Below are positions 40,624 through 60,147 of a DNA stretch of 64,000 nucleotides, in pieces. Where the stretch lies: the IMG/VR virus record IMGVR_UViG_3300047444_000299, positions 1-64,000 of that record; one strand, 5' to 3'. Under the pieces are notes generated by a model. The model saw nothing but the letters and a program-made list of their open reading frames with translations. It was not told where the DNA came from and ran no database searches. The stretch's first letter is position 1. Every line of letters begins with the position of its first letter. Source of the DNA: a virus. Its lineage: Duplodnaviria > Heunggongvirae > Uroviricota > Caudoviricetes. A program made the translations under genes and the position numbers.

Positions 40624-40922
40624 TGCTGACATTAGAATATCACCCAGACGGGCTTTGTGTTCCTGATGCAAAGACTATGCAAATCGCTAAAAGTTTTGTC
40701 GCGGCGGCGAATGATACATCCTCACATACCATCTTGTTTTCTCAGGCAATGCTTCTGGATGCGTTCCGGGTTTTGATCAAACGTGGTGATGTTGACCCGA
40801 CAAGGGTTGTTATCCGATTCGAGAACAACGCCATGTATTGCAACAGGGATGGTCATGTGAGTGATTGGCCGCGTGGGTTCTGTGACCACACCGAAAACTA
40901 CCTGATGGAACTGCTGTCATGA
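40623..40922 (+). CDS. hypothetical protein
   Basis: 99 aa. Confidence 0.4.
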   Translation: MLTLEYHPDGLCVPDAKTMQIAKSFVAAANDTSSHTILFSQAMLLDAFRVLIKRGDVDPTRVVIRFENNAMYCNRDGHVSDWPRGFCDHTENYLMELLS

Positions 40923-41242
40923 ATCGGTTCGATATCACAGCCTACGCCGAAGCCACCACAAGTTGGGGAGAGGATTGCTATGTAGGGGCTCTAACAATTA
41001 CCCCGTCTGAGAAAGGTCAGTGGGTAAAGGCCGAAGACATGGAATTGCTGCAACTCAAGCTGGATACCATTACCGCTGATCGTGATGCCGAAAAGGCCAT
41101 GAAAGCCACCGCCCGGATGCAACGGGATGAACAGACCAAATTGGCTAGAATCCGTCAAGAAGCTCTGGATGATATCTGCGGTAGGTATAAACGCGGTACT
41201 TTGACAATTCTGGATATTCTTCCGCACTGTGGGAATTTATAA
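40919..41242 (+). CDS. hypothetical protein
   Basis: 107 aa. Confidence 0.4.
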   Translation: MNRFDITAYAEATTSWGEDCYVGALTITPSEKGQWVKAEDMELLQLKLDTITADRDAEKAMKATARMQRDEQTKLARIRQEALDDICGRYKRGTLTILDILPHCGNL

Positions 41243-42319: not shown

Positions 42320-42588
42320 AAGGTAAAGGAATTGAAGTCGGGGATATTGTCCTCGGCTACCACAAAGGCTATTGGTTGGTTCTTGAACAAACCAAAAGGC
42401 TGGGTGGTAATACCAATCTGCTCAGATACCAACGAGTTGATAGAGTTTCCAAGACGCCACTAATCAAATCCTGCGACCAAGCATGGTGTACAAAGATCGA
42501 TCCAGAAGCGTTGTATCACAAACAAATCACAGAAGCATATGAATTGATGGATATGCTGATGAAGGCCAAATCTAAAGGTACTAATTGA
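42310..42588 (+). CDS. hypothetical protein
   Basis: 92 aa. Confidence 0.4.
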   Translation: MEVKGKGIEVGDIVLGYHKGYWLVLEQTKRLGGNTNLLRYQRVDRVSKTPLIKSCDQAWCTKIDPEALYHKQITEAYELMDMLMKAKSKGTN

Positions 42589-42947
42589 TGGAAAGAACAC
42601 AAATCGCCCTAGCGGATAAAATCCGTGAATGGGAATTGAGCGCTGGGGAAAGCTTTACCGACTATTACATGCACGATTCTGTAAAGGATGTATCGTGGGC
42701 GTTTTGGTTGCTGGGGAAAGGTTTCACCGAACGAGCCAATGAATTGATCGATTTGATTCAAGCCGGTGAAACATGCATCGATCAAGAGTTGCTGTATGAG
42801 ATTTATCCACAAGATATCACCGAGGGTGAATCTAGTTGGGATTCGGATATACATTCCGCGAATATCTGTTTGTGGGCTGAATTTCTGGTAGCGTCTGATC
42901 GGTATTGGAAAGACATTACCGAATGGTTCGCAGATCAAAATGATTGA
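42585..42947 (+). CDS. hypothetical acidic protein
   Basis: 120 aa. Confidence 0.45.
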   Translation: MMERTQIALADKIREWELSAGESFTDYYMHDSVKDVSWAFWLLGKGFTERANELIDLIQAGETCIDQELLYEIYPQDITEGESSWDSDIHSANICLWAEFLVASDRYWKDITEWFADQND

Positions 42948-43413
42948 AATCGAACGCAAATTCCTAATTGATGCAACCATGTTGCCGGGATGCTTAACCC
43001 CAACCCGAATCGCCCAAGGCTATTTGAATCAAGATCCTGACAAGACCGTCAGGATTCGGATCGCCGGGGATAAAGGATTCATTACCATCAAAGGTAAATC
43101 CAGCGACAACGGCCTATCCCGGTACGAATGGGAAAAGGAAATTGATCTAAACGACGCCAAAGACTTGTTGGGAATGTGTTCCAATATCATCGACAAGTCC
43201 CGGTATCATATGATTCATCAAGGCAAGCTCTGGGAAATTGATGTATTCCACGGCTTGAACGAAGGATTGGTTGTCGCAGAAATTGAGTTGACTTCCGAAA
43301 CAGAATTGTTTAATTTACCGGAATGGATTACCCAAGAGGTTACGGGCAACCCAGATTACTACAATTCGAATTTAGCTGTATGTCCCTTTAAGTGGTGGTT
43401 TGAGTATGAATAA
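42940..43413 (+). CDS. CYTH-domain protein (triphosphate tunnel metalloenzyme; CyaB/ThTPase-like)
   Basis: N-terminal MIEIERKFLI (ExExK signature), later VAEIEL. Confidence 0.6.
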   Translation: MIEIERKFLIDATMLPGCLTPTRIAQGYLNQDPDKTVRIRIAGDKGFITIKGKSSDNGLSRYEWEKEIDLNDAKDLLGMCSNIIDKSRYHMIHQGKLWEIDVFHGLNEGLVVAEIELTSETELFNLPEWITQEVTGNPDYYNSNLAVCPFKWWFEYE

Positions 43414-43627
43414 ATTTGACATTTCGACCCGGATGGATACCGTCCGGGGATTCTTGGACGACCCCGATACCCATCAAGCCATTCTGGTAATTACCGATAC
43501 CCCGAATGGTCAGTGGGTGCGGGTAGGGGATGTTGAAGCTTATGCCAAGATCAAAGTCGAAAGGGCTACTAAGGTTTTGATGCAACAACATGCGGATGAA
43601 ATCTCCGAATTGTTAGGGTGTAAGTAA
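43400..43627 (+). CDS. hypothetical protein
   Basis: 75 aa. Confidence 0.4.
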   Translation: MSMNKFDISTRMDTVRGFLDDPDTHQAILVITDTPNGQWVRVGDVEAYAKIKVERATKVLMQQHADEISELLGCK

Positions 43628-44509: not shown

Positions 44510-44697
44510 GCATGGAAGAATTGTTTGAAAAGGCCCGGTTGGCTATGGGAGCTACCCCAGAAATACGCCTAGCTAAAGCCAGAGCAAGGACTATCGCATT
44601 CAATAAGAAATTGATTGAACAATATCGGTGCTCTGAATGTGGGGTTGATACCTTGAATTACTCCCATACCTTCAAATGTTCCTATAGGGGCTTGTGA
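44506..44697 (+). CDS. hypothetical small protein
   Basis: 63 aa; CSECG. Confidence 0.35.
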   Translation: MSMEELFEKARLAMGATPEIRLAKARARTIAFNKKLIEQYRCSECGVDTLNYSHTFKCSYRGL

Positions 44698-44870
44698 TGT
44701 TTTTACAAATCGAGAAATGTCCGTTTTGTGGTGGAAATGCTGACACCGACAATAATATGCGGTCTGTCTGGGTAGAATGCTATACCTGCGGTGGTAAAGG
44801 CCCATGCTTCAATGGTAGAGACGCTACCTATAATGCGGTCAGGGCTTGGAATCAGCGGGTGACCAAATGA
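44697..44870 (+). CDS. Lar-family restriction alleviation protein-like (57 aa)
   Basis: EKCPFCGG...VWVECYTCGGKGP...AVRAWNQRV matches the Lar signature CPFCGG...C..CGA.GP...AWN.R. Confidence 0.55.
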   Translation: MFLQIEKCPFCGGNADTDNNMRSVWVECYTCGGKGPCFNGRDATYNAVRAWNQRVTK

Positions 44871-45088: not shown

Positions 45089-45429
45089 AAGAATTGATCG
45101 GTCAAGAAGTTCGGCGGATTCATCCCTGTGTAGGTGAATTAGTGGTAGGTGGGGTTTATACCATTACCAATGTCAATCTAAGGATACCGACCAGAATCAT
45201 GGTTTCCGGGGCTGATACGTGGTTTCTATTTGATGCATTCGAGGTAATCAAAAAGGTCTGGATTCTATATGAATGGTATTACGATTTCTGCAATACATGG
45301 GATTGCATCGTCAATATATTCGATTCCGAAGACAAGGCTATCGCCGCCAAGATTGTGGAAGAACAAAAACCCCAGTACAAGAACAAAGAGCAGTATTACA
45401 CCACAATAGATTGTCGGGAAGTATTGTAA
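45085..45429 (+). CDS. hypothetical protein
   Basis: 114 aa. Confidence 0.4.
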   Translation: MKELIGQEVRRIHPCVGELVVGGVYTITNVNLRIPTRIMVSGADTWFLFDAFEVIKKVWILYEWYYDFCNTWDCIVNIFDSEDKAIAAKIVEEQKPQYKNKEQYYTTIDCREVL

Positions 45430-45656
45430 TGTTGCATGACCTTGACGAAATCGAGAGGCTTTATCCGGTATTACCCAAATGCCCATTCTGTCAAGGATAT
45501 TCATCCCCAAATAGCCATATGGGTAAATGCTGGGTAGGATGTGATGTCTGCGGAGCAAGAGGCCCGAAGTTTGTCATGGAATTTAATGATACAAAACCAG
45601 CCTATGTCCGAGCGATCATGGCATGGGCATCCAGAAATGGGAATATTGTTTTATGA
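45429..45656 (+). CDS. Lar-family restriction alleviation protein-like (paralog)
   Basis: LPKCPFCQG...KCWVGCDVCGARGP...AIMAWASRNG. Confidence 0.55.
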   Translation: MLHDLDEIERLYPVLPKCPFCQGYSSPNSHMGKCWVGCDVCGARGPKFVMEFNDTKPAYVRAIMAWASRNGNIVL

Positions 45657-47384: not shown

Positions 47385-47472
47385 TGATTGCATCAAATGC
47401 TTGACACACTCACTGTATGGTATAGAATGAGCATACACCAACCGAAACCCTGAACCATATAGGAGTTACACA
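47385..47472 (+). promoter_or_regulatory. promoter TTGACA-N16-TAGAAT + conserved leader (CACCAACCGAAAC..AGGAG)
   Basis: near-consensus hexamers, leader shared with downstream cassettes. Confidence 0.6.
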
Positions 47473-47778
47473 ATGTCTAAACGTACTGAATTCGAACTAC
47501 TCGAAGCGCATCTAACCCTACAACTGAAAAAGCATGTCGAAGCCAAGACTACCGGGAAACCATCAAAGAAAGGTTCTAAGGTAGCTCGGGACTTTATCCA
47601 AGTGTCTATGTTGTGTGGTAAGTGGTCATTAGATGGGATGCATTACATTCCGCTTGTGGTTGATGTTGAGGCGATTGATAACGCTATAGCCGAAATGGAA
47701 GCAAAGAAAGCTGCTAGGGCATTGGGTTATCAGGACCGAGATATCAAGGTCGAAGGGTTTGTAAAGGTTAGTAAGTAA
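47473..47778 (+). CDS. Lys-rich small basic protein (possible DNA/RNA-binding)
   Basis: 101 aa, strong promoter + SD. Confidence 0.5.
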   Translation: MSKRTEFELLEAHLTLQLKKHVEAKTTGKPSKKGSKVARDFIQVSMLCGKWSLDGMHYIPLVVDVEAIDNAIAEMEAKKAARALGYQDRDIKVEGFVKVSK

Positions 47779-47793
47779 CCTAAACCATTGATA

Positions 47794-47818
47794 AGCCTCG
47801 GGAAACCGGGGCTTTTTG
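47794..47818 (+). terminator. rho-independent terminator (family A)
   Basis: AGCCTCGGGAAACCGGGGCT + TTTTT. Confidence 0.8.
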
Positions 47819-47869
47819 TTATGTGATCCAATCCCTATAATAGAATCAAAAATAATTTGTTTTGGGGGG

Positions 47870-47897
47870 TTGACACCATAAAAACCCATGCCATACT
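47870..47897 (+). promoter_or_regulatory. sigma70-like promoter TTGACA-N16-CATACT
   Basis: lies about 130 nt upstream of ATG 48031. Confidence 0.45.
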
Positions 47898-48030
47898 GAC
47901 ATCACGCAAAAGGAATACAGATTTTAAAGATTTAAGGAACTTGTTAGCAGATGCACGCACTAAACGACTCAATTGCCTAGGTTCGCATTATCAACCGACC
48001 AAACCAATTTGATGTTTAGGAGATTCAAAA

Positions 48031-48507
48031 ATGCGCCAAGTATCTAAAGCTGCTCAGGAACAAACTGTTACCACAAACGTTCTGGAAACCGCTACTACCG
48101 CGTTGTCACTCGCGGAGGATGCATTGATCAAGGCTAAAGAAGCTTTGGCCGCTGCTGGGGGTTCCAAGGGCTCTAAAGGTGGTTCCAAGGGTAAGGCTGT
48201 GACCATTCAACCCCAAACCCCTGTAAACGGTTCTGATGCGTCCAAGGGATCGGCTGGACGTAACCCAAGCCCGGAACAACTCGAAATTCGATCTGCGATT
48301 ATCGAGGCTTTGCAGTCCGGGGAAATCCGATTCTTTACCATTGCCGAAGTTACCGACGCAATGAAAGCCGATAGAATCCAAACCCGAAACGCGGTTAACT
48401 ATCTGGAAGCCCAAGGGGTAGTAACCCGATACGGTGAAAAACTCCCAGAAGGTCGCGGCCAGCGGGAACTGATCTACAAGGCCGGGACCATTCCACCGGT
48501 TGCCTAA
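48031..48507 (+). CDS. putative winged-helix DNA-binding protein with Gly/Ser/Lys-rich linker
   Basis: disordered GGSKGSKGGSKGK segment; C-terminal wHTH-like region. Confidence 0.45.
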   Translation: MRQVSKAAQEQTVTTNVLETATTALSLAEDALIKAKEALAAAGGSKGSKGGSKGKAVTIQPQTPVNGSDASKGSAGRNPSPEQLEIRSAIIEALQSGEIRFFTIAEVTDAMKADRIQTRNAVNYLEAQGVVTRYGEKLPEGRGQRELIYKAGTIPPVA

Positions 48508-48527
48508 AAGATCCTGATAAGCTCTAA

Positions 48528-48551
48528 AGCCCCTTAACCGGGGCTTTTTTG
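48528..48551 (+). terminator. rho-independent terminator
   Basis: AGCCCC-TTAACC-GGGGCT + TTTTTT. Confidence 0.75.
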
Positions 48552-48562
48552 TTTTCAATAGC

Positions 48563-48590
48563 TTGACAATCTGTTTCAATGGGTTACATT
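48563..48590 (+). promoter_or_regulatory. sigma70-like promoter TTGACA-N16-TACATT
   Basis: upstream of the 48640 ORF. Confidence 0.45.
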
Positions 48591-48639
48591 ACCATATAGG
48601 AACATTCTTACATTCTCATACCTTAATCAATGGTGACTT

Positions 48640-48870
48640 ATGAAACTGTTTTATGTAGCAATCTATATGGTTGTGTGTAGTCTCCCTGTAGCGTTCCTGT
48701 CAATCTATATGGCATGGGATAGGACTCCCCCAAACCTGCGCCTAGTACAGTTGGATCAAATCCTTAGAACCGGTTCCCTGACCTATATCGGGTTGATTGT
48801 CGGTAGTCTGTTGGTGTTTCTGGTTTGGCTGATGCTTCCGGGTGACCGGGTTCGCAATGTGTATCAGTGA
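48640..48870 (+). CDS. small membrane protein (2 TM)
   Basis: 76 aa. Confidence 0.45.
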   Translation: MKLFYVAIYMVVCSLPVAFLSIYMAWDRTPPNLRLVQLDQILRTGSLTYIGLIVGSLLVFLVWLMLPGDRVRNVYQ

Positions 48871-49439
48871 ATAATTGCTGAATTTGATGGAATTCTAGTG
48901 AATTATTCTGAATGGTTCCGGGGCTGATTAGTGAATTCTGCTGTAATTTGATGCTATTGCGGGATTTGATGCATTTATTATTGCATCAAAATATTGAACA
49001 CTCACTAGGCAGCCCGAACGAATTCCCCATTTTTCTGTAACGTTTTCGATACACCGTAACGTTTTCAATACACCACATAAATTTTCGATCAATTCAATTC
49101 CCCAACCATTTCCGAACCATTCCTAAGCTGATTCTATTACCTTCCAACCATTCCAAATCTATATCTATTTTCCTGATATTCTCCCCTAAAAATATGCATA
49201 ATACCAATATACATTATGGATTTAATCAATCCCAATATATGGGATGATTTTGATTGATTTAGGCTTGCATTCTGTTCTGAATCTGCTAGGCTATTGTCTA
49301 TTCACTAATGCTTTTCTAACCTTCTAATGGTTATATGACTACTCACTTGATGGCTGGATTGATTGTTATCGGGTTGTTGCTATCCCTAACCGGATCAATG
49401 GTTTGTGGTTATGGTGATATGCCTAGGCATTCCCTTTGC

Positions 49440-50030
49440 TGGATTATTTGGTTTGATATCTCTATAGGTATGTTGGGGGTATCCCTGCTATTGCTTATTG
49501 GTTTGATGATGTTCTAGGGGTTTGATGATGTTCTATATGGTTTGGATGATATCATTGGTTTGTGATGGTTTGATGATCTATGCGGTTCAATGCATGGTTA
49601 AACATTCGTTTTGGCAGGTGGTGGTTTTTGATTCATCCTTATTGATTAGTGGTATTGCAATGTTTGTGGTATTGTGCTATGGGTTTAAATCTCTGCGGCT
49701 TGTTCGGTTGAATAGGGGTTGATATTATGTTTCGGTTGATTAATGCTTTAGAGGTTTGCGGCTGGTTTGGATTGATTTGTGTTTCTGGTTTGATTTTGGA
49801 ATCATTCCGGGTTATCATTTGATTCTACTGATTGAGGGGATTTGATCATGGTTACTATGATTCTAGGCTTCGCGGTATTGCTGGGGTTTTTGTTTCACTA
49901 TTGCCCGGTTGATACTGCTAAGGGTTGATATTCTGCTAGGTTTGGGGCGATTCTGGTGGAATATTAGCATTTAGGGTTTGCATTTAATTTTGAATTGGTT
50001 TATTGTTTGATTTTGATTTAATCACTTGAC
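49440..50030. repeat. iteron-like degenerate GGTTTGAT / GGTTGAT repeat array
   Basis: more than 20 occurrences of GGTTTGAT-like words, including tandem GGTTTGATGATGTTCTA x2. Confidence 0.6.
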
Positions 50031-50042
50031 TTGGCGAATTAC

Positions 50043-50396
50043 ATGACTCTGTATAACTCTATCAAATTGTTGGAAGCGTTCCGGGACTTTTGTTTGTCTA
50101 AGGGCAAATCGGTTATTGTTCACATTGAACCGGGTAAGGGTGCAAACTGGAATGTTTGCGCGGTTGGTCAATTCGGGGAATTCAAAAAGGTAAAGGTCGG
50201 GAATTGGGGCCGGGGCCATACAATGGCCGAAAAGCTGTCTGATGCGTTTGATTGTTTCAATAACCGTCAAACCTATCAGGATTTGTGTAAAGCTGATCGA
50301 GCCGAGGAATTGTTCCCGACATTCGATAAGCTGGCGGTTCGATTGACTGCTGATATCGAAGCATTCCAAGCCCAATGGATGAAAGCTAAAAAGTAA
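50043..50396 (+). CDS. hypothetical protein
   Basis: 117 aa. Confidence 0.45.
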   Translation: MTLYNSIKLLEAFRDFCLSKGKSVIVHIEPGKGANWNVCAVGQFGEFKKVKVGNWGRGHTMAEKLSDAFDCFNNRQTYQDLCKADRAEELFPTFDKLAVRLTADIEAFQAQWMKAKK

Positions 50397-50399
50397 TTT

Positions 50400-50457
50400 G
50401 CATTTGATGCAATCCCCTGTATACTGCTGATACCAACCAAATACAGGGGATTTGAAA
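50400..50457 (+). promoter_or_regulatory. PeSL-like cassette (stem-loop + TTGCAT-N16-TATACT + conserved leader)
   Basis: TTGCATTTGATGCAA palindrome, TATACT, CCAACCAAATACAGGGGA leader. Confidence 0.55.
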
Positions 50458-50841
50458 ATGGCTTTAGAAATATCGGCGGTATCTGATCTGTTTAACTACG
50501 GTATGACTGAAGACGGAACCCCTTTTATAGCTGAACGTTATTTCATAGAAGCCGAAGCGACTAACGGCCAGCGTTGGATTCATACCGCACGGTTTGATTC
50601 TGTTGTCAAGGTTGACGGCGGCGAAGAATGCGACGGAATGGTATTTTTTGAAGACCATCGCCAAGAAGCAAGCGATAAATGCGAAGCATTGGCCGAACGT
50701 ATCCGGTTATTCATGAATGCCGGTGGTAAGCTTGATCCTGTACACTGGATTGAATCTGATCCTAGATATGGTTCGAATGCCTATCAAACCCTAGATTCAC
50801 AAGGATATTTCCGGGATCTGGAAAGAAAAGAAGAATATTAA
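50458..50841 (+). CDS. hypothetical protein
   Basis: 128 aa after cassette. Confidence 0.5.
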   Translation: MALEISAVSDLFNYGMTEDGTPFIAERYFIEAEATNGQRWIHTARFDSVVKVDGGEECDGMVFFEDHRQEASDKCEALAERIRLFMNAGGKLDPVHWIESDPRYGSNAYQTLDSQGYFRDLERKEEY

Positions 50842-50845
50842 GCAT

Positions 50846-50870
50846 AAGCCCCTGATTCTAGGGGCTTTTT
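50846..50870 (+). terminator. rho-independent terminator (family C: AGCCCCTGATTCTAGGGGCTTTTT)
   Basis: identical at 58604, 60314 (1 mismatch) and 61886. Confidence 0.8.
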
Positions 50871-50880
50871 ATTTCTTCAA

Positions 50881-50955
50881 AATAATTGCATCAAATTGCT
50901 TGCATTGGTCTGGGGTTGGGTTATACTGACCATACACCAACCGGAGACATCAACC
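50881..50955 (+). promoter_or_regulatory. PeSL-like cassette (type a: TTGCATCAAATTGCTTGCATT-N15-TATACT + leader)
   Basis: conserved with about 30 other copies. Confidence 0.55.
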
Positions 50956-51189
50956 ATGAAATCCAAAATCAAAGTTACCGTACAAGTTGAAGACTACAAA
51001 GGCAATATGGTTGATGTTGTTGGATGCAAAAGCCTGAAACAAAATATCCACGGTAACTGGGTTGGTTATGTTGGCCGGGAACGTATCGAAAACTTTAGCT
51101 GCGCATTTGATGCCGCCCAATGGTTCCTAGGCGCTGATATGGCTGGCGACGAAATCACCGCTTTCATGACCAAACATATCATGCATTAA
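50956..51189 (+). CDS. hypothetical protein
   Basis: 77 aa. Confidence 0.5.
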   Translation: MKSKIKVTVQVEDYKGNMVDVVGCKSLKQNIHGNWVGYVGRERIENFSCAFDAAQWFLGADMAGDEITAFMTKHIMH

Positions 51190-51267
51190 TTGATGCAAAG
51201 GGGCTTGCATTTGATGTAAACCCCTGCTAGAATGATCTTACACCAACCAAATACAGGATTCGCCAAC
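51190..51267 (+). promoter_or_regulatory. PeSL-like cassette
   Basis: GGGGCTTGCATTTGATGTAAACCCC hairpin, TAGAAT, leader. Confidence 0.55.
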
Positions 51268-51579
51268 ATGAAATTTTACAGCCTCCCAGTGAACGTACAA
51301 GCTCAAGTCAAAGCCGAATGGATGGCAGGTAAGATCATGTCGGCTAATGATCGTATGCGGTACTTTGCCCAAAATGGCTACAAAACAGCGGCGGAATATC
51401 ATCAAGCTGTACTAGCCGAAGCCCCAACCGTTGAAGAACTGAAAATAATCATTATCGAATTGATGAAATCCCGGTTTATCCAACATGGTTTTGAGGACTG
51501 GATGAATCAAATCCCTAACGCGGCCATGATCTGCCGTAACTATAACGAACTGGTCATGATGACTAAGGCCGGGAAATAA
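51268..51579 (+). CDS. hypothetical protein
   Basis: 103 aa. Confidence 0.5.
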   Translation: MKFYSLPVNVQAQVKAEWMAGKIMSANDRMRYFAQNGYKTAAEYHQAVLAEAPTVEELKIIIIELMKSRFIQHGFEDWMNQIPNAAMICRNYNELVMMTKAGK

Positions 51580-51648
51580 TTTCATCAAAGGGGTTGCATC
51601 AAATGCAGCCCCTGCTATACTGATGACACACAAACAGGAGTTACCAAC
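51580..51648 (+). promoter_or_regulatory. PeSL-like cassette
   Basis: hairpin + TATACT + leader with AGGAG. Confidence 0.55.
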
Positions 51649-51861
51649 ATGCAATTGATCAAAGCGGTTGACGCGAAGCTGGGCAACATTATAGCCATGC
51701 CGGTGACTGTCCATACTGGGGTTGTCCAAATGGTTATGGGCAAACTGGTATCCCGGACGTTTGAAGACGTTGACGGCTGGATTACCTTGACCATTGAAAC
51801 CAAGGCCGGTAAGGTCGCGCATGATTATCCCTTTGATGATTTGATTGTAAAGGAGGTTTGA
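51649..51861 (+). CDS. hypothetical protein
   Basis: 70 aa. Confidence 0.5.
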   Translation: MQLIKAVDAKLGNIIAMPVTVHTGVVQMVMGKLVSRTFEDVDGWITLTIETKAGKVAHDYPFDDLIVKEV

Positions 51862-51863
51862 AC

Positions 51864-51980
51864 ATGATCGGCCAAACCCGGATAACAAAGAAAGAGTTTT
51901 ATAAACTCGGTGGTTTGTCAAATCCTAAGTTGTTTCGCAAATCCGCTAATGGTGTTTGGTCCTATTGGAAAGGGGAATAA
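51864..51980 (+). CDS. mini-protein (38 aa)
   Basis: AAGGAGG SD 7 nt upstream. Confidence 0.4.
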   Translation: MIGQTRITKKEFYKLGGLSNPKLFRKSANGVWSYWKGE

Positions 51981-51983
51981 ACC

Positions 51984-52187
51984 ATGTATAACCATAAGGC
52001 TTTGATGGGGTTGGAAGCGCGTATAAACGATGATCTAGAGGTCATTGGGATTATCACCGATTCCTATCATGAGGGGCAAACCCACTGGCTGCAAATCGAT
52101 GGCAGCTATGAACTCGCTGTGCAAGCGGTGGCGGTTGTTCTGGATCTGGGCAAGGGTACAAGCTTTGCACGTCCTAAAGCGTTCTAG
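51984..52187 (+). CDS. hypothetical protein
   Basis: 67 aa. Confidence 0.45.
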   Translation: MYNHKALMGLEARINDDLEVIGIITDSYHEGQTHWLQIDGSYELAVQAVAVVLDLGKGTSFARPKAF

Positions 52188-52199
52188 GGGCGGTTTAAA

Positions 52200-52320
52200 C
52201 GATATTCTAAACCCGGCATTGTCCGGGTTTTATTTTGTCTATTGGTATTGACAAGCTGTCGGAGAATATGAGAAAATGAATTGACGACCTATATTTGTGG
52301 TTGGCATGAAAATTTCCTCA
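52200..52320 (+). repeat. conserved intergenic element (TTGACA...AATATGAGARAATGAATTGACGACC...TTGGCAYGAAAATTTCC), copy 1
   Basis: three near-identical copies (52200, 53571, 53953). Confidence 0.6.
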
Positions 52321-52400
52321 ATTATTTGCATCAAATTGCTTGCATTCTGTTTTGATTCAATTATACTGACCACACACCAAACGAAATCGGGGGCTACAAC
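52321..52400 (+). promoter_or_regulatory. PeSL-like cassette (type a)
   Basis: as above. Confidence 0.55.
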
Positions 52401-52610
52401 ATGAACCGTAAAGAAGTTTTCCTAAAGATCAAAGCTGTCGCGGCGGTTGATGGTTTTACTAAACTTGACGTGCTGCCGATGTTCAAAGGCGTAGCACCCT
52501 CGGTTGTTGATTCGTACCTGAAAAAAGCGTATGAACTCGGGTTTATTACCCTGAATGCAGGCAACCCGCTTTGCATGTACCCGACTATCAATCTGATCAA
52601 TCTCAAATAA
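52401..52610 (+). CDS. hypothetical protein
   Basis: 69 aa. Confidence 0.5.
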   Translation: MNRKEVFLKIKAVAAVDGFTKLDVLPMFKGVAPSVVDSYLKKAYELGFITLNAGNPLCMYPTINLINLK

Positions 52611-52685
52611 TTTGATGGAAAGGGGTTGTATTTGATGCAACCCCTGTTATACTAACCACACCAAACGAAATCAGGAGTTACCAAA
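52611..52685 (+). promoter_or_regulatory. PeSL-like cassette
   Basis: GGGGTTGTATTTGATGCAACCCC + TATACT + leader. Confidence 0.55.
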
Positions 52686-53015
52686 ATGATCGTTGACCAA
52701 ACCCCAGTAATGAAAACAATCGAAATCAAGATCATAAACCAGTCCGGCGAAGTGGTGTATCATCAATCCGAAATAACTTTCGGCTTCCCGCCAGCCTTTG
52801 TCGGTGCTGTTATCGAAAAGGTTTGCGTCTGCGAATTAGACGATGATGATCATGGTGATTTGAACAACTTGCATGTAATGGGCAATATGTCAAGCCGTCG
52901 ATTCGGTAAGGATTGGGAATTTACAGTTTCGGCGGTTGTTGTTTACCCTAAATCGGTGGGGGTGGCTGATGGCGACATGCACGCCATGTCACTGGCCTAT
53001 AAAAACACCCTGTAA
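52686..53015 (+). CDS. hypothetical protein
   Basis: 109 aa. Confidence 0.5.
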   Translation: MIVDQTPVMKTIEIKIINQSGEVVYHQSEITFGFPPAFVGAVIEKVCVCELDDDDHGDLNNLHVMGNMSSRRFGKDWEFTVSAVVVYPKSVGVADGDMHAMSLAYKNTL

Positions 53016-53092
53016 TTAATTGATGTAAAGGGTTTGACATTTGATGCAAACCCTTTATACTGATCATACACCAACCGAAACAGGATTTGATC
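53016..53092 (+). promoter_or_regulatory. PeSL-like cassette
   Basis: as above. Confidence 0.55.
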
Positions 53093-53320
53093 ATGGCCGC
53101 CACTGAACTGCAAAAATGGCAAGCAATGCAAACTAAAGCACATGCCCAAGCAAATGCGGGGTTTGCATTGTCGGTTAATGTTGAAATGTTGTTGAACCAC
53201 GAACTGCCAGCCGAAAAGATGCGCGAAGAATTGGCAAAGTTTTTGGAAGACTGGAAACAGGGTTGGGATAAAGCAATTGACGATTATGTTCAAACCGGTA
53301 TTAAATTAGGGGAAATTTAA
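53093..53320 (+). CDS. hypothetical protein
   Basis: 75 aa. Confidence 0.5.
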   Translation: MAATELQKWQAMQTKAHAQANAGFALSVNVEMLLNHELPAEKMREELAKFLEDWKQGWDKAIDDYVQTGIKLGEI

Positions 53321-53321
53321 A

Positions 53322-53525
53322 ATGAAAGCAGTTTCATTCTTTACTGATGACATCAAGATCATAGCCCACACCGCAACCCATGCCGATGATATTGGCAAAC
53401 CGATATCAGTCCGGGAGTTTGCGCAAGGCCAGCCGGTAAGCCTGTACACCATGCACAATGGTGACCTGATGCTGATTCGCAATGATGCACACCGGACGTT
53501 TATCGAAGGCCCGGAAATGGTTTAA
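53322..53525 (+). CDS. hypothetical protein
   Basis: GGGGAA SD; 67 aa. Confidence 0.45.
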   Translation: MKAVSFFTDDIKIIAHTATHADDIGKPISVREFAQGQPVSLYTMHNGDLMLIRNDAHRTFIEGPEMV

Positions 53526-53549
53526 ATCAAATCCTAATGAACCCGGCGA

Positions 53550-53577
53550 AAGTCGGGTTTATTTTTGTCTGTACTAG
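53550..53577 (+). terminator. rho-independent terminator (family B)
   Basis: ACCCGGCGAAAGTCGGGT + T-tract. Confidence 0.75.
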
Positions 53578-53640
53578 TTGACACACCCCAGAAAAATATG
53601 AGAGAATGAATTGACGACCCTAAAAACATATTGGCACGAA
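53571..53640 (+). repeat. conserved intergenic element, copy 2
   Basis: as 52200. Confidence 0.6.
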
Positions 53641-53728
53641 AATTTCCCGAATTATTTGCATCAAATTGGTTGTATTGCATCAAATACCCTGTATACTGAC
53701 CATACACCAACCGAAAGAGGCTGCAAAA
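53641..53728 (+). promoter_or_regulatory. PeSL-like cassette (type a)
   Basis: as above. Confidence 0.55.
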
Positions 53729-53920
53729 ATGAAACAGCAAATCATAAAATCCGCTGATGAATCGAAAATCGCTAAAATCAAGTTTGATTCTGAATATCAA
53801 GAATGGCAAGTCCGGTTGTATCATGTTGTAGGCGGTAAAGAAGTGTTTCAAAAGGATGCAACCTATTTCACCACTGATAAAGAAGACGCAACCGGCACCG
53901 CCCAAGCAATGATCAAGTAA
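53729..53920 (+). CDS. hypothetical protein
   Basis: 63 aa. Confidence 0.5.
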   Translation: MKQQIIKSADESKIAKIKFDSEYQEWQVRLYHVVGGKEVFQKDATYFTTDKEDATGTAQAMIK

Positions 53921-53926
53921 GAAAAG

Positions 53927-53951
53927 AGCCTCGGGAAACCGGGGCTTTTTA
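53927..53951 (+). terminator. rho-independent terminator (family A)
   Basis: AGCCTCGGGAAACCGGGGCT + TTTTT. Confidence 0.8.
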
Positions 53952-53952
53952 T

Positions 53953-54049
53953 TGCATCAAATACTTGACCTGAATAAATTTTTCATGTTAAAATGGGCTG
54001 ACGACCCCAAAAAGGTGTTGGCATGATTATTTCCCGAAAAAATTTTAAA
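53953..54049 (+). repeat. conserved intergenic element, copy 3
   Basis: as 52200. Confidence 0.55.
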
Positions 54050-54128
54050 ATAATTGCATCAAATGGCTTGTATTGCATCAAATTAGGCGTATACTGACCA
54101 CACACCAACCGAAACAGGGAACACGAAC
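54050..54128 (+). promoter_or_regulatory. PeSL-like cassette (type a)
   Basis: as above. Confidence 0.55.
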
Positions 54129-54602
54129 ATGAACGCATTTGCCCAAGCCCACAAGTTGACTAAAGAAATCATTCAACCGGGTGACAGCTATGCAGCCACG
54201 TTTGCCCTGTGCCTGAAACACCTAAACCAGAAGGCCAAGACCATGCAAATCAAACCAGAAGCCGTACAGTTTATCGAAACCGCTATTGCCGATTCCAAGG
54301 CTTATATAGCGCGTCTGGAAGCGTTCAAGGCAACCGACCCTAAAGGTTACATTGTAGTCACTGGCTCGGGCCGCATCCCGGTTACATTCAACATTCAAGC
54401 GGATACCGCGAATATCGGCAACATTGAAACCGCGAACCGCTTCAATGATCTGCGGATTGCCCAAGCAATGGGCCGCAAAGTAACCAACGGCAACAAAGAA
54501 CAAGGGGTAGCGGTTTACGTTGTTGACCAAATCGAATGGGAAATCGGTCAACAGCAAAAACTGATCGATGACTTAACCGAAGCCCTGAAAAAACACAAAT
54601 AA
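54129..54602 (+). CDS. hypothetical protein
   Basis: 157 aa. Confidence 0.5.
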   Translation: MNAFAQAHKLTKEIIQPGDSYAATFALCLKHLNQKAKTMQIKPEAVQFIETAIADSKAYIARLEAFKATDPKGYIVVTGSGRIPVTFNIQADTANIGNIETANRFNDLRIAQAMGRKVTNGNKEQGVAVYVVDQIEWEIGQQQKLIDDLTEALKKHK

Positions 54603-54677
54603 ATCAAAATAGGGGTTTGCAATTTGATGCAAACCCCTATAGAATGATCTTACACCAACCAAATAGAGGGTTTGAAC
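54603..54677 (+). promoter_or_regulatory. PeSL-like cassette
   Basis: as above. Confidence 0.55.
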
Positions 54678-55004
54678 ATGGATCACCATTACTACGCATC
54701 ATCCTGCTACGGCTGGGGAACTGGTGACACAAAGGAAGCTGCGATAAAGGAATCGGCAAAGCAACTGGGGGTTAGCACTCTAAGCCGTCATAAACCTGAT
54801 GGGGTTATGACTGTTGTGTGTCGTGTGGCCTTGCCGAAGGCTGCGCACTATTCAATCAGCCACTATATGCCGAATCTGATCACGAAAGAAGACGGCGTAA
54901 ACGATACCCGCAAGGGTGAAACCGTGCCGATATCTGAGGTTGAATATGTACGGGTTGTTTCGACTACCGGGAAATTTAAACCCGCACCGAAAGACCCTGA
55001 ATAA
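54678..55004 (+). CDS. hypothetical protein
   Basis: 108 aa. Confidence 0.5.
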   Translation: MDHHYYASSCYGWGTGDTKEAAIKESAKQLGVSTLSRHKPDGVMTVVCRVALPKAAHYSISHYMPNLITKEDGVNDTRKGETVPISEVEYVRVVSTTGKFKPAPKDPE

Positions 55005-55080
55005 AAATAAAATAGGGGGTTGCATTTGATGCAATCCCCTTTTATACTACTATCACACCAAACGAAATCGGGGCTACAAA
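55005..55080 (+). promoter_or_regulatory. PeSL-like cassette
   Basis: as above. Confidence 0.55.
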
Positions 55081-55320
55081 ATGCATACCATCAAAATCAC
55101 CAAATCCCCACGCGCAATAACCGAAGTCGATGCCTCGAACCTGATGTTTACCGGGTTCCGCCGCATCATGCGCGACGATGAACCATGCGCCTATGGTTCG
55201 ATTGGTTCGACCCTGTACCGTATCGAGTGCGAACCGCCGACCAATGGGGAATATCTGGTTAAGGTTTATATCGAGCAAGAATTGCTTGCATCGGCGTATA
55301 TGGATCGTTTCGACAACTAA
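55081..55320 (+). CDS. hypothetical protein
   Basis: 79 aa. Confidence 0.5.
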   Translation: MHTIKITKSPRAITEVDASNLMFTGFRRIMRDDEPCAYGSIGSTLYRIECEPPTNGEYLVKVYIEQELLASAYMDRFDN

Positions 55321-55389
55321 AATCAAAATAGGGGTTGTATTTGATGCAACCCCTGTTATACTGACCATACCAACTAAGGAGCGGCCAGC
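55321..55389 (+). promoter_or_regulatory. PeSL-like cassette
   Basis: leader ends AAGGAGCGGCCAGC. Confidence 0.55.
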
Positions 55390-55560
55390 ATGTTAGACAA
55401 CAAATTCTCAAAGGGTGACAAAGTGCTGGCCGCTGGCCCTTTTTGGTTGACGATTACCGAAGTACGCGCAAACGGCTGGTATAGCTGCCGGTTTGGTTCT
55501 ATCGGCGGTGATGCTGGATCTTTCCGGGAACGCGAACTAATCCCATATACAGGAGCATAA
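55390..55560 (+). CDS. hypothetical small protein (56 aa)
   Basis: AAGGAG SD; below the ORF-track length cut-off. Confidence 0.45.
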   Translation: MLDNKFSKGDKVLAAGPFWLTITEVRANGWYSCRFGSIGGDAGSFRERELIPYTGA

Positions 55561-55563
55561 TCC

Positions 55564-55878
55564 ATGCCAATGATTACAACCCCCGGCGAATATAAAGCCT
55601 ATATTGACGTTTTCGTTTCGGATAATGGGCATTTGCGCCATATCGCCAGCTTTCAACTAGGTTCGGATTCTAGTCGGGTATTTGCCAAATCATGGCTAGA
55701 CCGGTTTGCCGAACATGGCGAAGCCCTGTTATCTAAGCCCATACAAGCCTATTTGGAAGCTTTGCGGGCGAAAGGCGCAGACCTGACCATCAAACCGCAT
55801 TTAACCGGCTCAGAACGCATCCAGACCCTCGAAGAAATGGAAAAAGAAGACCCGGACATTTTCAAAAACCCGGAATAA
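55564..55878 (+). CDS. hypothetical protein
   Basis: CAGGAG SD; 104 aa. Confidence 0.5.
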   Translation: MPMITTPGEYKAYIDVFVSDNGHLRHIASFQLGSDSSRVFAKSWLDRFAEHGEALLSKPIQAYLEALRAKGADLTIKPHLTGSERIQTLEEMEKEDPDIFKNPE

Positions 55879-55891
55879 CACCAACCCAATA

Positions 55892-55919
55892 GACCCGGCG
55901 AAAGTCGGGTTTATTTTTG
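55892..55919 (+). terminator. rho-independent terminator (family B)
   Basis: ACCCGGCGAAAGTCGGGT + T-tract. Confidence 0.75.
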
Positions 55920-56059
55920 TTCCGGGGTTGCATTTTGTTTTGAGTGTGGTATGCTTTAGTTACTGGGGAGGCCCGGAGGAAATCATCGGAGGAACCTGAG
56001 ATTTGAGTTGGCATGATTCTTGATATAGCAATTTGAATGCCAGAAATTATTTTAAAATA

Positions 56060-56133
56060 ATTGCATCAAATGCTTGCATTGCATCAAATTGCTGCCATAA
56101 TAACCACACACCAACCGAAACCGGAGAAACAAA
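56060..56133 (+). promoter_or_regulatory. PeSL-like cassette (type a, -10 CATAAT)
   Basis: as above. Confidence 0.5.
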
Positions 56134-56343
56134 ATGTCTACTTCTACTAAAGCATTCCTAGCCGCGATTGACATCGAATCGAAAAATGCGATTCTGGATT
56201 CCATCGCCAAGCATTGCGGCATTACCCGTGAAGCCGCGTATGATGAGGTAACAGACCCGGAAGCCGAACACCTGTTAGATTATATGGTCGCGCCGTTTCG
56301 GTTGGGTGCGTCGGTTTTGATGCAAAAACACGGATTCAAATAA
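56134..56343 (+). CDS. hypothetical protein
   Basis: 69 aa. Confidence 0.5.
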   Translation: MSTSTKAFLAAIDIESKNAILDSIAKHCGITREAAYDEVTDPEAEHLLDYMVAPFRLGASVLMQKHGFK

Positions 56344-56419
56344 TTTGATAGAAAGGGGTTGCATTTGATGCAATCCCTTGCCATAATAACCACACACCAA
56401 CCGGAAAGAGGCTTTCAAA
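56344..56419 (+). promoter_or_regulatory. PeSL-like cassette
   Basis: as above. Confidence 0.55.
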
Positions 56420-56725
56420 ATGTCCGATATGACTGTAGCAAATACCATCCGTCAACAACTCGGCGGGCATAAATTCGCGGTAATGTGTGGCGTCAAGCAA
56501 TTTGTAGGCGGTGAGAATTTCCTACAATTCAAAATGCCGTCCAATTTCGCGAAAGATAAAATCAATTTGGTTAAAATTATCTTGACCCCGGCTGATTTGT
56601 ACGATATCGAATTTTATTATGTCCGTGGAATCAACCTGAAAATGGTTTGCAAAGTCGAGGGAATTTATAACGATATGCTGCAAAGCGAATTTACCCGCGT
56701 AACTGGTCTGGATACGCACCTGTAA
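56420..56725 (+). CDS. hypothetical protein
   Basis: 101 aa. Confidence 0.5.
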   Translation: MSDMTVANTIRQQLGGHKFAVMCGVKQFVGGENFLQFKMPSNFAKDKINLVKIILTPADLYDIEFYYVRGINLKMVCKVEGIYNDMLQSEFTRVTGLDTHL

Positions 56726-56802
56726 AAATTTGATAAAAAGGGTTTGCAATTTGATGCAAACCCTTTATACTGATCATACACCAACCGAAACGAGTAACCA
56801 TC
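56726..56802 (+). promoter_or_regulatory. PeSL-like cassette
   Basis: as above. Confidence 0.55.
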
Positions 56803-56964
56803 ATGACCCTGACTTACAAGCAAATCCAGATTATCGAACTAGTCAAGTCCGCTGGTCAAGAAGGCGCGGAGGATATGCTTGTTTGCATGGGTTGGGCGGC
56901 TGACCACAAGGCGGCAAAGGCTATGATTAAAAAGGCCCAAGCTGCGCAAAATAAACCAAAATAA
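56803..56964 (+). CDS. hypothetical small protein (53 aa)
   Basis: follows cassette; below the ORF-track cut-off. Confidence 0.4.
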   Translation: MTLTYKQIQIIELVKSAGQEGAEDMLVCMGWAADHKAAKAMIKKAQAAQNKPK

Positions 56965-56965
56965 A

Positions 56966-57028
56966 ATTTGTATTGCATCAAATTGATGTTATACTGACCA
57001 TACACCAACCGAAACAGGAGTTACAAAA
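56966..57028 (+). promoter_or_regulatory. PeSL-like cassette
   Basis: TATACTGACCATACACCAACCGAAACAGGAG. Confidence 0.55.
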
Positions 57029-57475
57029 ATGAACTATGCAGACAACGGCGAAAACATCAGTAACAAACTGTTTAAATATCTGCCATTGGGCGACATAATG
57101 CGCGTTCGGGCTGGGCATGATCTGGGGCTTTGCCGAATCGTCATGATTCAAGACGATGATTATAACTTTGAGGATCTTTGCGGTGACTGCTACAAGCCGG
57201 AAGCTTGCCCGGATATCGAAGTAACTACATTAGCACGCCAGAAACGAGCATTCCGCGCCCGTGTGAACCGTGAAGGCGTATGGGGCGTGATTTTGCAATG
57301 CCGACCTGATCCAACGTGCGAATGGGTTGACGTGGAATCGGTGTGGGGGTTGGTTGGCAAGGATTTTTTCGAATCAGGCTATGATTCTGAATTTGTCAAG
57401 CTCGCGGATCAATGGTTGATGGAAAAAGTCGATTTTGATTATATGATTGGGTTGATTCGTACCTTTTCAAAATAA
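57029..57475 (+). CDS. hypothetical protein
   Basis: 148 aa. Confidence 0.5.
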   Translation: MNYADNGENISNKLFKYLPLGDIMRVRAGHDLGLCRIVMIQDDDYNFEDLCGDCYKPEACPDIEVTTLARQKRAFRARVNREGVWGVILQCRPDPTCEWVDVESVWGLVGKDFFESGYDSEFVKLADQWLMEKVDFDYMIGLIRTFSK

Positions 57476-57549
57476 AATCAAAATAGGGGGTTGTATTTGA
57501 TGCAACCCCTTGCCATAATAACCACACCAACCGAACCGGAGTTAACAAA
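57476..57549 (+). promoter_or_regulatory. PeSL-like cassette
   Basis: as above. Confidence 0.55.
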
Positions 57550-57840
57550 ATGTCTTTTCGCCTCCCAGCTAAAACCAACCCATTGCGCGCACTGTTTGAC
57601 CTAGAACTGTTGGTCAAGATCGAAAGCCGGGAATTGGTTGTTACCCTGTTCGAAGCTCGCGGTTCGGCTCGCCGGTTGTTTGAATCTGATATCCGCGTGC
57701 AATCGGTTGCCTTTGTCATTGTCGAGGCTAATGGAATGGTTAGCCTTATCGCGTTTGAACGGAACCGCGAACATGGTGGAACCCCAGTTCATAAAATTTT
57801 GTGGAATTTCGGCAAGGCATGGGAAACCATCAAAATTTAA
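57550..57840 (+). CDS. hypothetical protein
   Basis: 96 aa. Confidence 0.5.
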   Translation: MSFRLPAKTNPLRALFDLELLVKIESRELVVTLFEARGSARRLFESDIRVQSVAFVIVEANGMVSLIAFERNREHGGTPVHKILWNFGKAWETIKI

Positions 57841-57914
57841 TTGCATCAAAGGGGTTGTATTTGATGCAACCCCTGCTATACTAACCCCATACCAACCAAC
57901 AAAGGGGTTTGATC
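57841..57914 (+). promoter_or_regulatory. PeSL-like cassette
   Basis: as above. Confidence 0.55.
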
Positions 57915-58004
57915 ATGGGCCAGCCACACACAAACGTCGATACACTGGGACTCTGGTTAGTAACCATTCTGGCGGTATTGTCCGTGGTCTGGACGTTTAG
58001 TTAA
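57915..58004 (+). CDS. membrane mini-peptide (29 aa)
   Basis: cassette-driven; hydrophobic LGLWLVTILAVLSVVW. Confidence 0.3.
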   Translation: MGQPHTNVDTLGLWLVTILAVLSVVWTFS

Positions 58005-58041
58005 TTTCTTGTTAGCCTGACCTTTTCCCGGAGTCTATCCC

Positions 58042-58239
58042 ATGCTCAATGTCATAACCCCAGCTACAAGCTCGCCTAAGCCCCTACAAGGCGTTTTCGG
58101 TCAATACGTGGCATATCGGGCCGAACATAACCCGCTTTCGGGCCGCTGGATGGTTCTGAGCGAGTTTGACCAATGTATTCAGGCAGGTCTAAGCAAGGCT
58201 GCCGCCGAATCGCTGGCGGATACCCTTAATCAAATTTAA
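58042..58239 (+). CDS. hypothetical protein
   Basis: 65 aa. Confidence 0.4.
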   Translation: MLNVITPATSSPKPLQGVFGQYVAYRAEHNPLSGRWMVLSEFDQCIQAGLSKAAAESLADTLNQI

Positions 58240-58315
58240 ATTTGATCCAAACCCTTGACCGGTGGATTTTGTTCTGTAATAATCCACCTATACCAATCGA
58301 AACGGAATTAACACC
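58240..58315 (+). promoter_or_regulatory. PeSL-like cassette variant (TTGACC-N17-TAATAA)
   Basis: leader CCAATCGAAACGGAA. Confidence 0.45.
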
Positions 58316-58588
58316 ATGTTGACCCAAACCAGCCTAAAACATCCGGTTATGCAGGAACGAATTCTCGCCGGGTTGATCGAAGCCCAAGAAAAGGCCGAAA
58401 AGACCGGGCATGGTCGGGCGTATGTCGCGAACTCGAAAAGCAATAACATCATGCGAATCGATGTTTTCAAGCCTGACCAATTGGCATGGCTGCCTAAAGG
58501 CGGCGTCATTGTGTACGGTGCCGAGTCCCGGACCATTACCCCTATGGTCGAGGCGGCATTAGGCTCGAAGCTGTCCGACCTGATCTAA
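58316..58588 (+). CDS. hypothetical protein
   Basis: 90 aa. Confidence 0.5.
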   Translation: MLTQTSLKHPVMQERILAGLIEAQEKAEKTGHGRAYVANSKSNNIMRIDVFKPDQLAWLPKGGVIVYGAESRTITPMVEAALGSKLSDLI

Positions 58589-58603
58589 CCCGGATTCAAT
58601 CAA

Positions 58604-58630
58604 AGCCCCTGATTCTAGGGGCTTTTTTAT
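58604..58630 (+). terminator. rho-independent terminator (family C)
   Basis: AGCCCCTGATTCTAGGGGCT + TTTTTT. Confidence 0.8.
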
Positions 58631-58632
58631 TT

Positions 58633-58718
58633 CTTAAAATAATTTGATGCAACCCCTTGCAATGGTCTGAATTAGGTGTAAACTTACCCCATACCAAACG
58701 AAATCAGGAGTTAAGAAC
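58633..58718 (+). promoter_or_regulatory. PeSL-like cassette variant
   Basis: leader CCAAACGAAATCAGGAG. Confidence 0.45.
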
Positions 58719-59141
58719 ATGAAATTCGAAGCCGGTCAAACCTACGCAACCCGCTCAATTTGTGATGCTGATATGGTCATATCGATTAAGGTTGTATCGC
58801 GTACCGCCAAACGTCTCAAAACAGAAGACGGCAAAACCCTCGGGATCTATGAATATGAGGGGATCGAACAGGTTCGCCCGTGGGGCCGTTATAGCATGTG
58901 CCCAATTATCGGCGCTGATGATCTGGTAAAGGCCAAACAACCAACCCAAGCCCCGGCGGTTAAAGCCCCGGTAACCCTTAACAGCCTGATGGCCGAAGGC
59001 GAGAAACTGTTTACCCCGGATCAATTCAGCGACCTTAAAAACATGTTGGGCGGTCTGCTAGGGGTAGCGATTCAAACCAAACCAGAACCGAAACCAACCG
59101 CGCAAATTATCAACTTTGCCGACTACAAGAAAAGGGGTTGA
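58719..59141 (+). CDS. hypothetical protein
   Basis: 140 aa. Confidence 0.5.
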   Translation: MKFEAGQTYATRSICDADMVISIKVVSRTAKRLKTEDGKTLGIYEYEGIEQVRPWGRYSMCPIIGADDLVKAKQPTQAPAVKAPVTLNSLMAEGEKLFTPDQFSDLKNMLGGLLGVAIQTKPEPKPTAQIINFADYKKRG

Positions 59142-59143
59142 TC

Positions 59144-59494: not shown

Positions 59495-59564
59495 TTAAAA
59501 AGTTTGCATTGCATCAAATAGCTGTTATACTGCTAACACACCAACCGAAACAGGGAATTGAAAC
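59495..59564 (+). promoter_or_regulatory. PeSL-like cassette
   Basis: as above. Confidence 0.55.
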
Positions 59565-60121: not shown

Positions 60122-60147
60122 GACTCAAACCAAAACCCCGCGAACAA

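Follow-up and report, generated by a model that had tools for sequence, protein, structure and literature searches.

We analysed a stretch of 64,000 nucleotides (hereafter the window), corresponding to positions 1 to 64,000 of the IMG/VR record IMGVR_UViG_3300047444_000299 of a Caudoviricetes virus, in which an open reading frame (ORF) encodes a CYTH protein, also known as a triphosphate tunnel metalloenzyme (TTM). The position of this gene, those of its motifs and those of other genes in the window are presented in Table 1. The ORF starts with ATG and its TAA stop codon occupies 43411-43413; the product begins with MIEIERKF and has the sequence MIEIERKFLIDATML...VVAEIELTSE...FKWWFEYE. An in-frame stop codon is located upstream at 42889-42891, and no ATG, GTG or TTG is found from there to 42940, so that the N-terminus of the protein cannot be longer. 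The gene is functional, and it is under purifying selection, since comparison with the closest relatives gives a ratio of nonsynonymous to synonymous substitution (dN/dS) of 0.08-0.12.

Table 1. Genes and sequence motifs of the window discussed in the text (aa, amino acids).
Feature	Position	Strand	Remarks
CYTH/TTM gene, NeuTTM type	42940-43413	+	157 aa, single domain; supported by Pfam, PDB, fold and dN/dS
ExExK (E3, E5, K7), metal and triphosphate binding	42946-42960	+	Invariant in 37 homologues; role of the motif from PMC8233210
Y28, counterpart of Tyr-28 in the catalytic dyad proposed for NeuTTM	43021-43023	+	Alignment to 2fbl; at least 90% conserved
T36-V-R38-I-R40, xRxR phosphate-binding strand	43045-43059	+	R38 and R40 invariant; T36 at least 90% conserved
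K51, counterpart of Lys-52 in the catalytic dyad proposed for NeuTTM	43090-43092	+	Invariant; alignment to 2fbl
K86-S-R88, basic tunnel residues	43195-43203	+	Invariant; aligned to K/R of NeuTTM 'EKTRY'
V112-A-E114-I-E116-L117, acidic ExE strand for metals 1 and 2	43273-43290	+	E114 and E116 invariant
Upstream 119-aa gene	42588-42947	+	8-nt overlap (ATGATTGA) between its stop and the CYTH start; gene call on L001; no Pfam match
Downstream 73-aa gene	43406-43627	+	8-nt overlap between its ATG and the 3' end of CYTH; gene call on L001; no Pfam match
UvsX, C-terminus	50-808	+	
gp41-like helicase	1047-2492	+	
Primase	3607-4629	+	
Topoisomerase II subunits	5894-9015	+	
AsiA (anti-sigma-70) homologue	9077-9367	+	Pfam AsiA, E 4.5e-12; directly 3' of the topoisomerase II genes
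Rnl1-like ligase	10771-11940	+	
Polynucleotide kinase (PNK)	12559-13425	+	
Rnl2-like ligase	14779-15822	+	
NMNAT-Nudix	16410-17495	+	
NAMPT	17473-19014	+	

A CYTH protein of the NeuTTM type

The sequence-only reading of this DNA had described a CYTH protein of 157 aa with an EIERKFLI (ExExK) start and a later acidic VAEIEL strand. The translation of the ORF has that length, the motif is present as E3/E5/K7 and the acidic strand as residues 112-117. Pfam CYTH (PF01928) matches residues 1-133 with E 6.5e-13 and 49.3 bits (gathering cut-off 23.2), so that a profile search, whose failure would have refuted that reading, did recover the family, and the Pfam match, the PDB searches with sequence and profile and the fold search all agree on the assignment. 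The feature is real, far beyond chance, and the family call is correct. PF01928 was the sole Pfam match at E<=1, no second domain being found in the protein, and the PHROG family phrog_6660 matches it with E 1.5e-18.

Among proteins of known structure, phmmer aligned residues 1-147 with NeuTTM (NE1496) of Nitrosomonas europaea, PDB entries 2fbl and 3typ, at E 1.7e-17, and a search with a profile of 37 homologues rendered the same entries at E 1.7e-24; they were the only PDB sequences found by either procedure. A search of 5.8 billion proteins identified 5901 homologues at E<=1e-3. An identical protein is encoded on a 183-kb contig (L001; loci used for comparison are designated by L numbers), and proteins 80-85% identical on contigs of 143-155 kb.

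The AlphaFold2 model of the protein (mean pLDDT 92.1, pTM 0.84) has a topology of ten beta strands and two helices and, as modelled, it is a beta-barrel tunnel with opposing basic and acidic faces. In a Foldseek search of the PDB with this model, NeuTTM (2fbl/3typ) was the best match (E 6.5e-12), followed by SaTTM, Pyrococcus CYTH proteins, YgiF and AtTTM3; the 35 matches at E<=0.001 were mostly CYTH/TTM proteins, which took the top ranks, and also included three chains of the Mediator complex. Residue conservation was read from an alignment of the 37 homologues, in which E3, E5, K7, R38, R40, K51, R61, E63, E65, K86, R88, D101, E114 and E116 are invariant. Moreover, the alignment to 2fbl indicates that Y28 and K51 of the window protein keep the Tyr28/Lys52 pair of NeuTTM, which has been proposed to be its catalytic dyad (PMC3440374). 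By each feature that could be examined, the protein belongs to the CYTH superfamily and, within it, to the NeuTTM-type phosphatase subgroup.

Cyclase or phosphohydrolase

Three sequence determinants that separate the activities of CYTH proteins have been described by Vogt et al. 2021 (PMC8233210). Class IV adenylate cyclases carry HFxxxxExExK at the N-terminus, and in them the first Arg of the xRxR motif is replaced by a small residue; thiamine triphosphatases (ThTPases) have W/YxRxR, the aromatic residue stacking against the thiazolium ring; and strand beta-8 bears ExE in phosphatases and ExA in cyclases (PMC8233210). The window protein presents the phosphatase signature, with the small residue T36, both arginines (R38 and R40) and both glutamates (E114 and E116), and the three determinants therefore place it with the TTM phosphohydrolases. 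The sequence-only reading had left it open whether the enzyme would make cAMP or hydrolyse a triphosphate: the second activity is supported by the motifs and by the kinship to NeuTTM, whereas the HF, Arg and ExE positions, as well as the NCBIfam model of cyclases, argue against the first.

It is thus very unlikely, judging from the sequence, that this protein makes cAMP. A class IV adenylate cyclase of the CyaB type, which could serve the phage for manipulating the catabolite signalling of its host, would belong to the same superfamily and be of similar size, and homologues of the window protein are labelled 'adenylate cyclase' in several metagenome sources. Aeromonas CyaB and the Yersinia enzyme YpAC-IV share with it the TTM fold and ExExK. 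However, only M1-I2 precede E3, which makes an HF motif impossible, and all homologues start alike; R38 and E116, an Arg and a Glu that cyclases replace by small residues, are retained and invariant; the cyaB equivalog TIGR00318 scores 14.6 bits against a cut-off of 57.95; and the Yersinia class IV cyclase appears in the fold search only from rank 28 on. In addition, NeuTTM and CthTTM have high triphosphatase (PPPase) activity but do not act as cyclases to any significant extent, and to call such proteins 'adenylate cyclase' is a known historical mis-annotation (PMC3440374). We regard the cyclase explanation as extremely doubtful.

Other members of the superfamily were also considered. A ThTPase of the 25-kDa type was rejected since T36 stands in place of the Trp or Tyr, and ThTPase folds rank 41 or lower in the Foldseek search. 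A CYTH-CHAD protein of the YgiF type was discarded because there is no C-terminal CHAD domain, YgiF (5a60) being matched solely through its CYTH half. An RNA 5'-triphosphatase that would act on primary transcripts, or alongside the RNA repair enzymes of the phage (PNK, Rnl1 and Rnl2), could be envisaged because Cet1-like enzymes share the TTM fold, poxvirus capping enzymes were weakly matched in the fold search (ranks 39 and 42), and RNA repair genes are present in the window. On the other hand, PF01928 is matched to the exclusion of the Cet1-like mRNA triphosphatase family (PF02940), the capping enzymes have E values of 4e-3 to 6e-3 and template modelling (TM) scores <0.5, the RNA repair genes lie 27-32 kb away and are unlinked to CYTH in other phages, and the nearest relatives of the protein are small-molecule triphosphatases; an activity on RNA is therefore scarcely credible.

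Substrate and proposed mechanism

NeuTTM and CthTTM are grouped together in cluster 2 of the classification by Vogt et al. 2021 (PMC8233210). Judging from its sequence, the window protein is probably a Mg- or Mn-dependent hydrolase of inorganic triphosphate (PPPi), or of another short triphosphate, of the NeuTTM/CthTTM subgroup, encoded by a stand-alone accessory gene. The most likely substrate would be PPPi, as suggested by the closest characterised homologue and by the conserved catalytic residues. NeuTTM is likewise a single-domain protein of about 150 aa that aligns from end to end with the window protein, and the two have in common the ExExK, RxR, Y28/K51, K86/R88 and ExE motifs as well as a C-terminal EVT..Y.N. 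By analogy with NeuTTM and SaTTM, the triphosphate chain would be bound between a basic face formed by K7, R38, R40, K51, R61, K86 and R88 and an acidic, metal-binding face, in which E3, E5, E114 and E116 would hold two metal ions. The terminal phosphate would then be hydrolysed by a two-metal mechanism assisted by the Y28/K51 dyad, converting PPPi into PPi and Pi, and other short polyphosphates could possibly be cleaved too. During infection, removal of PPPi or of short polyphosphates may allow phosphate to be recovered for nucleotide synthesis; it can also be the case that the enzyme clears a by-product that chelates Mg and Ca.

Several observations weigh against hydrolysis of PPPi as the activity of this protein. 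Identity between this phage-encoded protein and NeuTTM is only about 34%, and the AlphaFold2 model superimposes on NeuTTM with a TM score of only 0.67-0.71, so that details of the loops and of the tunnel opening may differ. The substrate range varies within the subgroup, CthTTM being less specific than NeuTTM (PMC3440374), and what PPPi and NeuTTM-type enzymes do physiologically is unsettled even in bacteria (PMC3440374, PMC8233210). In Escherichia coli most PPPase activity is supplied by the ordinary pyrophosphatase (PMC3440374), and it is therefore not evident why a phage would need an enzyme of its own. Finally, no gene of a PPPi-producing pathway (QueD/FolE, dNTP triphosphohydrolase, MetK or cobalamin adenosyltransferase) was found in a Pfam inventory of 77 further ORFs of the window, which covers 64 kb of a genome of roughly 183 kb; among the best 25 of the 46 PHROG families matched by the same ORFs is an unplaced 'metal-dependent phosphohydrolase'.

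The main rival is a broader, CthTTM-like range, in which the enzyme would act as a gamma-phosphohydrolase on NTPs and dNTPs (yielding NDP and Pi) or on tetraphosphate and short-chain polyphosphate, thus reshaping the nucleotide and phosphate pools of the infected cell. The clustering of the less specific CthTTM with NeuTTM is in line with it, as are the MazG-like pyrophosphatases also encoded in the window and the fact that CYTH lies, in some phage lineages, among genes for DNA polymerase A, ThyX and metallophosphoesterases. However, the best match in both sequence and fold is NeuTTM, which is highly specific for PPPi and whose dyad is kept, and hydrolysis of dNTPs would be harmful to a replicating phage. 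We consider such a broad specificity rather unlikely, and hydrolysis of PPPi remains the reading that we favour.

Genomic context, distribution and significance

The window contains about 138 ORFs on the + strand, all genes lying on one strand, with a coding density of 90%, and nothing was found in it by tRNA and Rfam scans. That the DNA belongs to a phage, as the sequence-only reading had stated, is borne out by the presence of UvsX, a gp41-like helicase, primase, topoisomerase II, AsiA, Rnl1, PNK, Rnl2 and an endolysin; MazG-like pyrophosphatases, HNH endonucleases and Lar-like proteins are encoded as well. The AsiA homologue is 29% identical to what we take to be the AsiA sequence of T4. 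Megablast found no near-identical DNA in GenBank phage records, and the closest cultured phages by topoisomerase II are the Pseudomonas phages Astolliot and Milchi (Otagovirus), with 74-75% amino acid identity. By its sequence, the source is an uncultured T4-like phage, kin of these two. The Rnl1, PNK and Rnl2 genes (10771-15822) form a complete T4-style RNA repair set, and the NMNAT-Nudix and NAMPT genes (16410-19014) an NAD+ salvage pair of the NadV/NatV type.

The CYTH gene lies within a long run of small unannotated genes, and no strong sigma-70-like promoter was found directly upstream of it or anywhere from about 38.3 to 47.4 kb; the gene is probably transcribed with others of the early region, as one cistron of a long message. 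As a separate observation, 10 of the 15 strong sigma-70-like matches of the window (>=10 of 12 positions) are located at 47400-64000, where small ORFs are spaced by roughly 60-150 nt, an arrangement that resembles a series of early genes, each with a promoter of its own. Of the adjacent genes, the upstream one has homologues only in the close relatives L002 and L004, and in L002 two extra genes separate it from CYTH; its position next to CYTH thus does not make it a conserved partner. The downstream gene is not conserved beside CYTH in other lineages. Paralogues flank the CYTH gene at 40919-41242 and 43406-43627 (29% identity over 77 aa), with kin in Astolliot and related contigs.

Some further features of the region were noted. 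The ORFs 44694-44870 and 45273-45656 are also paralogous (34% identity over 59 aa), the former being Lar-like according to a weak PF14354 match on the identical contig L001, and the pair 11918-12550/45811-46374 probably corresponds to two HNH endonucleases; two ORFs of the window, without assigned coordinates, match phrog_953. A 465-nt stretch free of ORFs (48871-49334) bears direct repeats at 49037-49074 (two copies of 19 nt) and 49110-49169 (two copies of 31 nt). It is followed at 49300-50100 by a strongly G+T-rich segment, with AT skew down to -0.48 and GC skew up to +0.53, that includes TGGTTTGATGATG-type repeats (49499-49577) and small hydrophobic ORFs at 49335-49517 and 49522-49722. The whole of 48871-50100 could be an origin or a regulatory region, or could encode small membrane peptides.

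No partner gene was obvious in the sequence-only reading, and a Pfam scan of the neighbours, a comparison of loci and a clustering of ORFs led to the same result. The ten ORFs nearest to CYTH have no Pfam match, and when the loci of the related L002 and L004, of the more distant Astolliot and of unrelated Xanthomonas, Vibrio and Brevundimonas phages were compared, CYTH alone was common beyond close relatives. For the clustering, all ORFs within 8 kb of CYTH were taken from 87 loci, which represent 64 CYTH lineages at 70% identity. No real neighbour appeared in more than 6 of the 64 lineages, which leaves no conserved partner or operon in this set; the clusters with higher frequencies were rejected, as they consist of antisense shadow ORFs of CYTH itself.

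The real neighbours that recur, in 4-6 lineages each, encode isochorismatase-family (PncA-like) proteins, NAPRTase/PncB and metallophosphoesterases. NAPRTase/PncB is encoded directly downstream of CYTH in the L018-L029 group (adjacent in L019 and L029), and NAMPT is found near CYTH in two further loci. Altogether, NAD-salvage genes are found at a distance of up to 8 kb from CYTH in 7 of the 64 lineages, a raw count without background frequency (loci L018-L029, L041, L050, L053-L056, L061, L068, L070, L071, L073 and L081). Its proximity to such genes in several unrelated lineages of large phages hints at a link to NAD+ salvage, as a lead and not as a result.

These data bear on the possibility that the enzyme serves counter-defence or signalling, stripping the triphosphate from an organic metabolite or messenger of the infected cell (for instance ribose-5-triphosphate, pppGpp, thiamine triphosphate or a nucleotide signal that carries a triphosphate), perhaps in connection with NAD+ salvage. 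Such a role would be consistent with the location of CYTH among small genes of the early type, where anti-defence genes are common, with the Lar-like and AsiA homologues of the window, with the retention of CYTH in at least 64 phage lineages, mostly of large genomes, and with the NAD-salvage genes, which the window phage also encodes as NAMPT and NMNAT-Nudix. However, the lineages share no conserved partner or target; that NAD-salvage pair is 24 kb away from CYTH in the window; no family of the PADLOC-DB defence-system models matched the protein at E<=1, and the literature searched contains no such role; the aromatic residue of ThTPases is absent; and the nearest cellular homologues are stand-alone Bacteroidota genes of a housekeeping type. 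A counter-defence or signalling function is thus quite improbable, and a PPPi hydrolase encoded by a stand-alone accessory gene is the explanation that we maintain.

A scan of IMG/VR rendered 159 viral contigs that encode relatives of the protein. Eighty of them (L013-L092) were fetched, 46 of which are >100 kb and 30 >200 kb, the longest having 608 kb; mis-assigned cellular DNA could account for some of the largest CYTH-bearing contigs. Relatives were also detected by tblastn (29-57% identity) in 37 GenBank phage records, mostly of large or jumbo genomes, and some of them are annotated as 'CYTH domain-containing protein' or 'inorganic triphosphatase'. The structure database BFVD includes CYTH proteins of Aeromonas phages 65.2 and D3, Vibrio phage nt-1 and Ralstonia phage RP12, and weak CYTH matches had been tabulated in 2006 for the T4-like phages RB49 and Aeh1 (PMC1524935). 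The presence of CYTH genes in phages is therefore already known, both from that listing and from GenBank and UniProt annotations, and mentions in the literature searched are limited to genome annotation, with no experimental characterisation of function. One family is formed by the window protein and the CYTH proteins of PHROG 6660, Astolliot, Milchi, the Xanthomonas PhiXhv phages and the Brevundimonas, Vibrio and Aeromonas phages, which are likewise encoded by stand-alone genes of large genomes; the window copy differs in that its source is an uncultured relative for which megablast gave no match to a phage record.

The orthologues of Astolliot (UOL48612.1) and Milchi are 56-57% identical to the window protein, and the distance between CYTH and topoisomerase II is about 35 kb in Astolliot and about 35-37 kb in the window. 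In a crude neighbour-joining tree, the copies from T4-like contigs of 113-183 kb, from some shorter contigs and from Astolliot form one clade, which points to a long vertical retention of the gene in an Otagovirus-like lineage of T4-type phages. The sister group of this clade consists of stand-alone proteins of Bacteroidota (Flavobacterium, Nonlabens and Paludibacter), which have 54-59% identity to the window protein, the same length and all the catalytic residues; these are, in contrast, chromosomal genes of a housekeeping type, whose neighbours are variable and unrelated.

The assignment made here corrects the recurring 'adenylate cyclase' label, and production of cAMP by this phage is not to be expected; apart from that correction, the gene is of an expected kind among accessory metabolic genes. 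Nevertheless, the purifying selection together with the recurrence of the gene in many large and jumbo phages argues that its substrate is relevant during infection. The function of NeuTTM-type enzymes in the cell and the biological weight of free inorganic triphosphate are open questions (PMC3440374, PMC8233210), and Astolliot and Milchi, which grow on Pseudomonas, are cultured and tractable systems in which the question of infection can be addressed. It would be a long shot, even more so than the counter-defence or signalling function considered above, that the enzyme is specific to infection rather than a housekeeping PPPase, either destroying a triphosphate molecule made in response to stress or in immunity, or acting together with the NAD+ salvage of the phage; if this were the case, a NeuTTM-type enzyme would for the first time be given a physiological role.

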